Source: Escherichia coli
Lineage (GTDB): Bacteria > Pseudomonadota > Gammaproteobacteria > Enterobacterales > Enterobacteriaceae
Direction: 5' to 3' (one strand)
Length of the DNA: 64,000 nucleotides
NCBI RefSeq assembly: GCF_003334315.1
Contig: NZ_QOWR01000014.1
Positions 1-878 of the stretch are shown here, piece by piece. Made by a program: the position numbers and the translations under genes. How positions within the stretch are numbered: the first letter of the stretch is position 1; each line of letters starts with the position of its first letter. The notes beneath the pieces are model-generated. The model was given only the letters and a program-made list of their open reading frames with translations. It was not told the DNA's origin and ran no database searches.

Positions 1-149
1 GGTTGAGAAGCGGTGTAAGTGAACTGCAGTTGCCATGTTTTACGGCAGTGAGAGCAGAGATAGCGCTGATGTCCGGCAGTGCTTTTGCCGTTACGCACCA
101 CCCCGTCAGTAGCTGAACAGGAGGGACAGCTGATAGAAACAGAAGCCAC
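1..149 (-). CDS. insA: IS1 transposase InsA, N-terminal 49 codons (partial, runs off window)
   Basis: GTG start at 149; translation [49 protein letters not shown] recognised as InsA. Confidence 0.85.
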
Positions 150-204
150 TGGAGCACCTCAAAAACACCATCATACACTAAATCAGTAAGTTGGCATCAT
201 CACC
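1..204 (-). mobile_element. IS1 insertion sequence, left end only (element continues beyond window start)
   Basis: Reverse complement of 1..204 reads GGTGATGATGCCAACTTACTGAT... which I recognise as the IS1 terminal inverted repeat followed by the insA 5' region; element boundary at 204. Confidence 0.85.
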
Positions 205-878
205 TACACAACATAACTGTTGAATTTTATACAGATACTAATTTCGATCCTACACTTAATCAGCAAGTCCAGTTATCCAGTTCATCAAATTACCTTTATT
301 CGTTTAAGGCCTACAGTCCTGGTACAAAAGTTGTAGATCACAGCAACCACATTTATGTCAATTTCACACTGAATAATGTCAAATTAACCTTACCAACATG
401 TTTTACCTCCATACTTACCGGGCCATCAGTCAATGGTTCAACGGTTAGAATGGGAGAATATAGCTCTGGGACAATTAAAAATGGCGCTTCACCTGTTCCC
501 TTTGATATCTCGCTTCAGAATTGTATTCGTGTGCGTAATATTGAAACAAAACTCGTCACTGGAAAAGTAGGTACTCAAAACACACAACTGCTTGGTAATA
601 CGCTTACTGGAAGCACTGCCGCCAAAGGCGTTGGCGTACTCATTGAAGGTTTAGCAACCAGTAAAAATCCGCTAATGACATTAAAACCTAATGATACGAA
701 TTCTGTTTATATAGATTATGAAACCGAAGATGACACCTCCGATGGGGTTTACCCTAATCAAGGTAACGGCACATCACAGCCTCTTCATTTCCAGGCAACA
801 TTAAAGCAAGACGGGAATATTGCTATCGAACCCGGCGAATTTAAAGCCACCAGTACTTTCCAGGTAACCTATCCCTGA
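205..878 (+). pseudogene. yadC: fimbrial adhesin (yadC-like) 3' fragment, truncated by IS1
   Basis: Frame open 117..878 but no ATG/GTG/TTG before ATG at 450; all three frames closed at 110-116 inside IS1; C-terminal pilin-like domain with Cys pair (PTCFTS...LQNC) ending FQVTYP; 113-bp spacer to panB. Confidence 0.6.

Follow-up and report, generated by a model that had tools for sequence, protein, structure and literature searches.

IS1 at the gal region is a long-known precedent for deletion of the DNA adjoining a resident insertion sequence (IS). For IS150, the long-term evolution experiment has documented insertion, adjacent deletion and stepwise extension, all without target duplications (PMC11708052), and IS1 leaves target duplications of 8-9 bp at simple insertions (PMC12428005). 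The Yad fimbriae of Escherichia coli are silenced by H-NS and aid colonisation in extraintestinal strains (PMC13245861; PMC6921372), with the yad genes being carried by 78% of phylogroup A genomes as against 96-100% of those in B1, B2, C and F (PMC13245861). Intact YadC is a two-domain adhesin, composed of a lectin and a pilin domain, that binds annexin A2 and helps tissue colonisation (PMC6921372; PMC13245861). Here we analyse a 64,000-nucleotide (nt) stretch of E. coli DNA (contig NZ_QOWR01000014.1 of assembly GCF_003334315.1, hereafter the window) that opens inside an IS1 copy fused to the 3' part of yadC. Judged from the sequence and its relatives, this IS1 is quite likely a copy anchored next to folK, with folK DNA on its far side, and the fusion the edge of a yad operon deletion, so that the lesion is probably loss of the whole operon rather than interruption of one gene.

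The predicted insA promoter, the 5' part of insA and the left inverted repeat (IRL) all reside within window positions 1-204 (Table 1). These bases are identical, at 204 of 204 positions (100%), to many copies annotated 'IS1-like element IS1B family transposase', which settles the IS1 identity proposed in the original prediction, and translation of the minus strand from the GTG at 149-147 yields the zinc-ribbon N-terminus of InsA. They correspond to positions 565-768 of the 768-bp resident IS1 in strain 2017.04.03CC, window position 78 being the sole mismatch. The remainder of insA, and insB after it, fall beyond the window start, and a full 768-bp IS1 with a frameshifted transposase is annotated in strain TOE3 and other relatives. 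Compared with the IS1A sequence, two bases of the 204-bp end differ. Base 8 of the IRL is A, where IS1A has C, and the minus strand from 204 to 182 agrees at 22 of 23 bases with GGTGATGCTGCCAACTTACTGAT, which we take to be the IRL consensus of about 23 bp. Pieces of IS1 are found in 4,965 of 5,426 complete E. coli genomes, and no further copy was found in the window beyond 1-204.

On the opposite side of the fusion, window 205-4593 is without mismatch to K-12 MG1655, and the exact matches to known IS1 and yadC sequence are far beyond chance. Alignment of 205-878 to K-12 yadC places the breakpoint at nt 566 with complete identity, in codon 189 of 412, and the remnant carries PF00419 (Fimbrial; Pfam) on residues 76-222 (E 1.5e-14) as the sole domain found. 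It is devoid of a start codon, of the signal peptide and of most of the lectin domain, as anticipated by the earlier description of a truncated gene that retains just its pilin domain. The remnant is thus a pseudogene and not a functional member of the YadC adhesins; its TOE3 counterpart is annotated 'yadC incomplete, missing N-terminus'. Upstream, the yadC frame runs into a stop at 114-116 inside IS1 and holds no ATG, GTG or TTG ahead of the ATG at 450, confirming what had been claimed of the start codon. That all three forward frames are closed at 110-116 applies to frames 2 and 3 and not to frame 1, the nearest stops of which are at 67-69 and 187-189.

In an intact yadC, the sequence across the joint site reads ...GGTATAG/TACACAACA. 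Megablast searches of the 5,426 complete genomes returned no exact copy of the window junction, the exact junction 37-mer had 0 matches in metagenome contigs, and the junction was absent from the 10 loci listed by an exact-protein look-up of the 142-amino-acid (aa) open reading frame (ORF) of the remnant. TOE3 is the only complete genome in which the IS1-yadC joint aligned in one piece. Its joint (6204/6205 of locus L001) lies 1 bp upstream of that in the window, at K-12 150389, reading CACC/GTACAC as compared with CACC/TACAC, and TOE3 consequently retains one extra yadC base, G565; the two IS1 copies also differ at window position 78. The gene order in TOE3 is folK - IS1 - truncated yadC - panB, the far IS1 end adjoining the folK-yadN spacer, and about 6.7 kb, from yadN through yadC nt 564, is missing. 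The flanks of this IS1, ...CCCATCTCC and GTACACAAC..., display no target duplication.

The folK-side joint sits at K-12 157121, between the folK stop, 132 bp away, and the yadN start, 238 bp further on. As a junction, ...AATCCCATCTCC/GGTAATGAC..., it aligns unbroken, at 99.8-100% identity, in 41 complete-genome records (about 37 strains without duplicates). Their sources are poultry, pigs, humans, frogs, water and sediment, and they span several continents; the right end of the element reads GGTAATGACTCC... Six of the 41 represent the ancestral state, namely IS1 followed by the 9-bp duplication CCCATCTCC and an intact yadN, as recovered with a synthetic query of IS1 end, CCCATCTCC and the yadN upstream region that matched in one piece. 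The duplication was verified by direct inspection in 2017.04.03CC and ET5.

Across 22 sampled genomes and the window, the IRL end of IS1 is joined to 17 distinct endpoints of deletion, with no change in the orientation of the element (Table 1). All 22 sampled genomes have K-12 157121 as the last base of the left flank, a constancy that is partly by construction, the junction itself having been the query that selected them. Thirteen of the endpoints open with G or C in a region of 42% GC (P = 0.004). Target duplications of IS1 tend to have G/C ends, and the endpoint composition therefore fits joints made by the transposase. Eleven of the 17 fall within the last 788 bp before panB. Such endpoint statistics carry an ascertainment bias, since TOE3, ECZP248 and S171-1 were chosen for their yadC joints; among genomes picked blind, half of the distinct endpoints (6 of 12) are still in yadC. 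None of the 17 passes the predicted panB promoter at 928-955 or reaches panB. It is plausible that folK and panB bound the deletions that are tolerated, and that successive extensions pile up against panB. In two genomes outside the anchored set, the IS1 joints at or near yadC likewise proved to be deletion joints. Literature searches on IS1 in connection with yad deletions, yadC or yadN turned up no account of the deletion series.

The surroundings of the junction point to the same group of genomes. With window 205-25000 as query, the top bit scores belonged to 2017.04.03CC, BL12, GS04, ET5, BHD6, TOE3, cM2a, PSS-13, SY3626, ET76, 13C1065T and others. The top matches deviate by about 1-8 mismatches, as estimated from bit scores, and identity is down to 99.7% after about 35 genomes, of which about half carry the anchored IS1. 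The number of IS1 pieces is at least 40 in genomes of the lineage, the median per genome being 10. The 24.8-kb haplotype matches a K-12-like, IS1-rich lineage of wild animal, human and environmental isolates. The original prediction had suggested a strain-specific insertion of the kind expected in E. coli B, Shigella or a laboratory derivative. That assignment finds no support, the best 24.8-kb matches being wild K-12-like isolates in a collection without Shigella genomes. The strain or lineage specificity of the event is borne out, and K-12 MG1655 indeed has no IS1 at the locus.

We propose the following course of events. IS1 would first have inserted in the AT-rich folK-yadN spacer at K-12 157121, generating the 9-bp duplication, and the IRL end of the anchored copy would later have become joined to yadC nt 566. 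The resulting deletion, of about 6.7 kb, would comprise yadN, yadV, htrE, yadM, yadL, yadK and the first 565 nt of yadC, abolishing the Yad chaperone-usher fimbrial operon and leaving a promoterless pilin-domain pseudogene beside an intact panB. The likeliest route would be a transposase-mediated adjacent deletion, that is, intramolecular replicative transposition into a target close by, in which the DNA between is lost. The window IS1 is taken to be the anchored copy since it shares the orientation of the series and the A at IRL position 8, a variant also present in the resident anchor copy of the related lineage, and since its haplotype and a TOE3 joint only 1 bp away point in the same direction.

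Several observations weigh against this proposal. The window ends inside IS1, leaving the far flank of its copy outside, and no contig with the exact junction was encountered in the complete genomes, the metagenome contigs or the ORF look-up. The constant left junction partly reflects the query, as mentioned, and of the 35 genomes nearest in haplotype, about half are missing from the set with the anchored IS1. Moreover, common descent of the TOE3 and window joints is unproven, considering the 1-bp difference and the IS1 single-nucleotide polymorphism (SNP) at position 78. An unrelated genome, GCA_047261945.1 (locus L039), harbours an IS1 in the opposite orientation (1978-2745) with its right flank starting at K-12 150398, 10 bp from the window joint, and its left flank outside the yad region, which suggests a local hot spot where independent events, including simple insertions, are possible. 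We hence rejected a certain single origin of the TOE3 and window joints as unproven; they could descend from one event followed by a 1-bp change or a sequencing error, or represent independent events at a hot spot.

The simplest rival, and the one put forward originally, is an IS1 insertion into yadC, with the 5' half of the gene and the rest of the operon just upstream and an 8-9-bp duplication beginning TACACAACA, which was expected about 564 bp upstream. Such insertions do occur in this lineage: yadC is hit with 9-bp duplications at 150890/150898 in cM2a and at 150886/150894 in 2017.04.03CC, a hot spot may exist at yadC nt 556-566, where three joints fall within 11 bp, and the window IS1 end is one SNP away from the resident anchor copy. 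Against this, in none of the complete genomes does yadC lie on both sides of an IS1 with its right flank at nt 565/566, the sole match, TOE3, being a deletion with the folK-yadN spacer as far flank and no duplication. Considering also the folK-side joint in the 41 records, a search for the upstream duplication at the window locus would most likely fail. Deletions far outnumber simple insertions among the IS1-yadC joints inspected, and the window haplotype belongs to the group that contains the anchored lineage. We consequently view a simple insertion as quite unlikely, and the original claim as probably wrong. Even less probable to us is a deletion or rearrangement starting from an IS1 elsewhere than 157121, with a far flank that is neither yadC nor the canonical anchor flank. 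The candidates would be 157238/156162 as in the KL53/CFSAN051542 lineage, 157202 as in GCA_964257875.1, or recombination or inversion with a distant IS1. KL53, CFSAN051542, OkiPb01684 and GCA_964257875.1 do have anchors and deletions of their own, IS1 pieces are abundant in these genomes (at least 40, as above), and the A at window position 78 is common to the KL53/CFSAN051542 copies. Those copies, unlike the window, have the canonical IRL base, however, whereas the A at IRL position 8 is the base of the 157121 anchor copy; in orientation and, to within 1 bp, in the place of its joint, the window agrees with TOE3, whose anchor is 157121.

A different route to the same final structure is possible though doubtful: a second IS1 in the same orientation may have inserted at yadC nt 566-574 and then undergone RecA-dependent recombination with the anchor. 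Operons with two or three IS1 copies exist (two in cM2a, three in 2017.04.03CC), including same-orientation pairs formed by the anchor with the htrE copy in 2017.04.03CC and with the yadC copy in cM2a. TOE3, WP7-S17 and 2017.17.03CC carry a mosaic IS1 with an IS1A-like patch, indicating that exchange between IS1 copies occurs, a further point against the one-step proposal. Likewise, the window SNP, absent from the anchor, is expected if the right part of the element came from an incoming copy. On the other hand, no intermediate with IS1 at this site was found in the complete genomes, and the route would call for one more correctly oriented insertion at each of the 17 endpoints. In ET5, where the anchor IS1 has not undergone a deletion, a shorter mosaic patch is present, showing that conversion can produce mosaicism without a deletion step. 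The mosaic IS1 copies of TOE3 and 2017.17.03CC are identical while their endpoints differ, a pattern to be expected if a single resident element gave rise to repeated events. IS1 variants are otherwise uninformative on the number of steps: although most derivative copies are the same as the anchor, further IS1 copies within these genomes match it too. With adjacent deletion and progressive extension being well documented for IS elements (PMC11708052), we favour the one-step adjacent deletion from the folK anchor, while the sequence data cannot separate the two routes.

The yad operon has also been lost or damaged in other ways. Pseudogenes of yadC are very common: public assemblies contain the identical 142-aa ORF in 1,251 recorded blocks, and among the ten loci listed yadC is broken by frameshifts, IS3-family and IS5-like elements and IS1. 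2017.04.03CC bears three IS1 copies in one yad operon (8437-9204, 12976-13743 and 16225-16992 of locus L014), these being the anchor (9-bp duplication), a copy in htrE (8-bp) and an inverted one in the 5' part of yadC (9-bp). In this lineage, IS1 seems to hit the operon often. In KL53 (L016), IS1 occupies 9121-9888 and 10974-11741, and the sites of the KL53/CFSAN051542 lineage are at K-12 157238 and 156162. CFSAN051542 itself (L029, 7660-9204) has two IS1 copies only 9 bp (TATGCTTCG) apart, the second joined to yadC nt 658; both copies have thus deleted adjoining DNA. GCA_964257875.1 (L036) has an IS1 in the opposite orientation (2164-2931) joining the folK spacer at 157202 to yadC at 150212, and OkiPb01684 a deletion from yadL to the yadC start. 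Strain 300709 (L002, 3454-5386), which served as reference for an intact yadC, has its yadK split by an IS3-family element, an independent hit on the operon.

Downstream of the remnant, the genes follow in the order panB, panC, rpnC, panD, as in K-12. A strong hairpin at 882-918 (Table 1) follows the yadC stop, ahead of the predicted panB promoter. We considered an intrinsic terminator after yadC and rejected it, given that the hairpin has no T tract and that no terminator was called. The farthest endpoint seen, that of 2018-11-3CC (K-12 149691, equal to window 902), splits this hairpin.

Table 1. Features around the IS1-yadC junction, and endpoints of the folK-anchored deletion series in K-12 coordinates
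Feature	Position	Strand	Remarks
IS1 left end	1..204	-	last 204 of 768 bp; element extends past window start
insA, 5' part	1..149	-	intact as far as window edge; GTG start 149-147
Promoter-like site ATGCCA-16-TATGAT	197-170	-	consensus scan; fits insA promoter embedded in IRL
IRL of IS1, GGTGATGATGCCAACTTACTGAT	182..204	-	starts reverse complement of window 1-204
IS1/yadC junction	204..205	.	IRL tip joined to yadC nt 566 (K-12 coordinate 150388)
yadC 3' remnant, pseudogene	205..878	+	nt 566-1239, codon 189 to stop
Residual 142-aa ORF, yadC frame	450..878	+	begins at first available start codon, ATG 450
Hairpin, 16-bp perfect stem, no T tract	882..918	+	fold -31.4 kcal/mol, z = -5.1
Predicted panB promoter TTGCCC-16-TAAAAT, extended TG	928..955	+	consensus scan only; 37 bp before ATG 992
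panB, intact	992..1786	+	no deletion endpoint enters
Endpoint in yadV	K-12 156151		nt 51
Endpoints in htrE	K-12 155253, 154967, 154913, 152853		nt 174, 460, 514, 2574
Endpoint in yadM	K-12 152385		nt 428
Endpoints in yadC, first five	K-12 150389, 150388 (window), 150279, 150234, 150084		nt 565, 566, 675, 720, 870
Endpoints in yadC, last five	K-12 149960, 149910, 149896, 149861, 149724		nt 994, 1044, 1058, 1093, 1230
Endpoint in yadC-panB spacer	K-12 149691		window 902

The window as a whole is collinear with K-12 from coordinate 150388 to 86496. Beyond the identical stretch at 205-4593, differences cluster at about 12-17 kb and 19-28 kb (cueO/gcd to acnB/yacH/lpd/aceF), and past 30 kb they amount to about 0-1 per kb, except for 13 at 46-48 kb; this patchiness looks like recombination patches on a K-12-like backbone. 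In yacH there is a 96-bp tandem repeat (window 20691-20900; 2.2 copies, 72% matches). From the way the K-12 alignment overlaps at this point, the window would have about one 96-bp unit more, and the kilobase bin of the repeat is the densest SNP cluster, with 81 differences. An internal direct repeat of about 560 bp (23918-24780; 80% identity, offset about 300 bp) presumably corresponds, by position, to the repeated lipoyl-domain region of aceF, an ordinary feature. Five gathering-level Rfam matches, tp2, naRNA4 (two), STnc40 and PssrA, lie at 27482-27595, 38870-39063, 39467-39536 and 45183-45272; we take these to be routine E. coli small-RNA or repetitive extragenic palindromic (REP)-type elements, unrelated to the IS1 joint.

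For annotation, the locus is best labelled as an IS1-bounded yadC pseudogene, probably marking the loss of the entire Yad operon and not a single interrupted gene. The related genomes provide a clean natural example of one resident IS repeatedly removing a dispensable, H-NS-silenced adhesin operon, with the neighbouring folK and panB appearing to limit the loss. The finding is relevant to surveys in which Yad fimbriae are counted as a factor in virulence or colonisation, and to the use of IS junctions as lineage markers. A more far-reaching idea, which we deem unlikely, is that the folK-yadN IS1 acts as a natural 'deletion ratchet', producing repeated and possibly stepwise deletions through yad that pile up against the panB promoter. 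The high recurrence of yad deletions might then stem from selection, beyond mutational bias, and by analogy with IS elements at bgl, silencing by H-NS might be perturbed by an IS1 located 238 bp ahead of yadN, so that expressing Yad would carry a cost. If true, the ratchet would amount to selected loss of Yad fimbriae driven by one resident IS1, and could explain part of the lower yad carriage in phylogroup A (PMC13245861).

How, then, does the locus compare with the systems it resembles? As a member of the IS1 family, represented by the IS1A and IS1B types of E. coli K-12, the window copy shares the terminal inverted repeat and the insA 5' region, and its relatives the 768-bp length and the 8-9-bp target duplications at simple insertions; it differs by A for C at IRL position 8, and only 204 bp are within the window. 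Compared with the YadC tip adhesin of the Yad chaperone-usher fimbriae (yadN-yadV/ecpD-htrE-yadMLKC), nt 566-1239 are identical to K-12 and likewise placed upstream of panB, whereas the N-terminal part is gone and most likely the whole upstream operon with it, in which case no fimbriae could be made. Other yadC and yad pseudogenes leave the same 142-aa remnant, yet arose through frameshifts, IS3-family or IS5-like elements, or IS1 in another orientation or from other anchors. The closest likeness is to IS adjacent deletion as in the IS150 case: a resident IS keeps one flank while its other end joins variable nearby points, the derivatives are without target duplication, and the series is nested and may be stepwise. 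In contrast to that case, the series here comes from nature, with isolates of several hosts and continents, and not from a laboratory selection. Both the invariant flank and the simple-insertion progenitor of this class are seen in related genomes, the fixed flank of the window copy being deduced from them. The yad deletion series is an instance of the long-known class of IS-adjacent deletions, an ordinary and recurrent form of gene loss.

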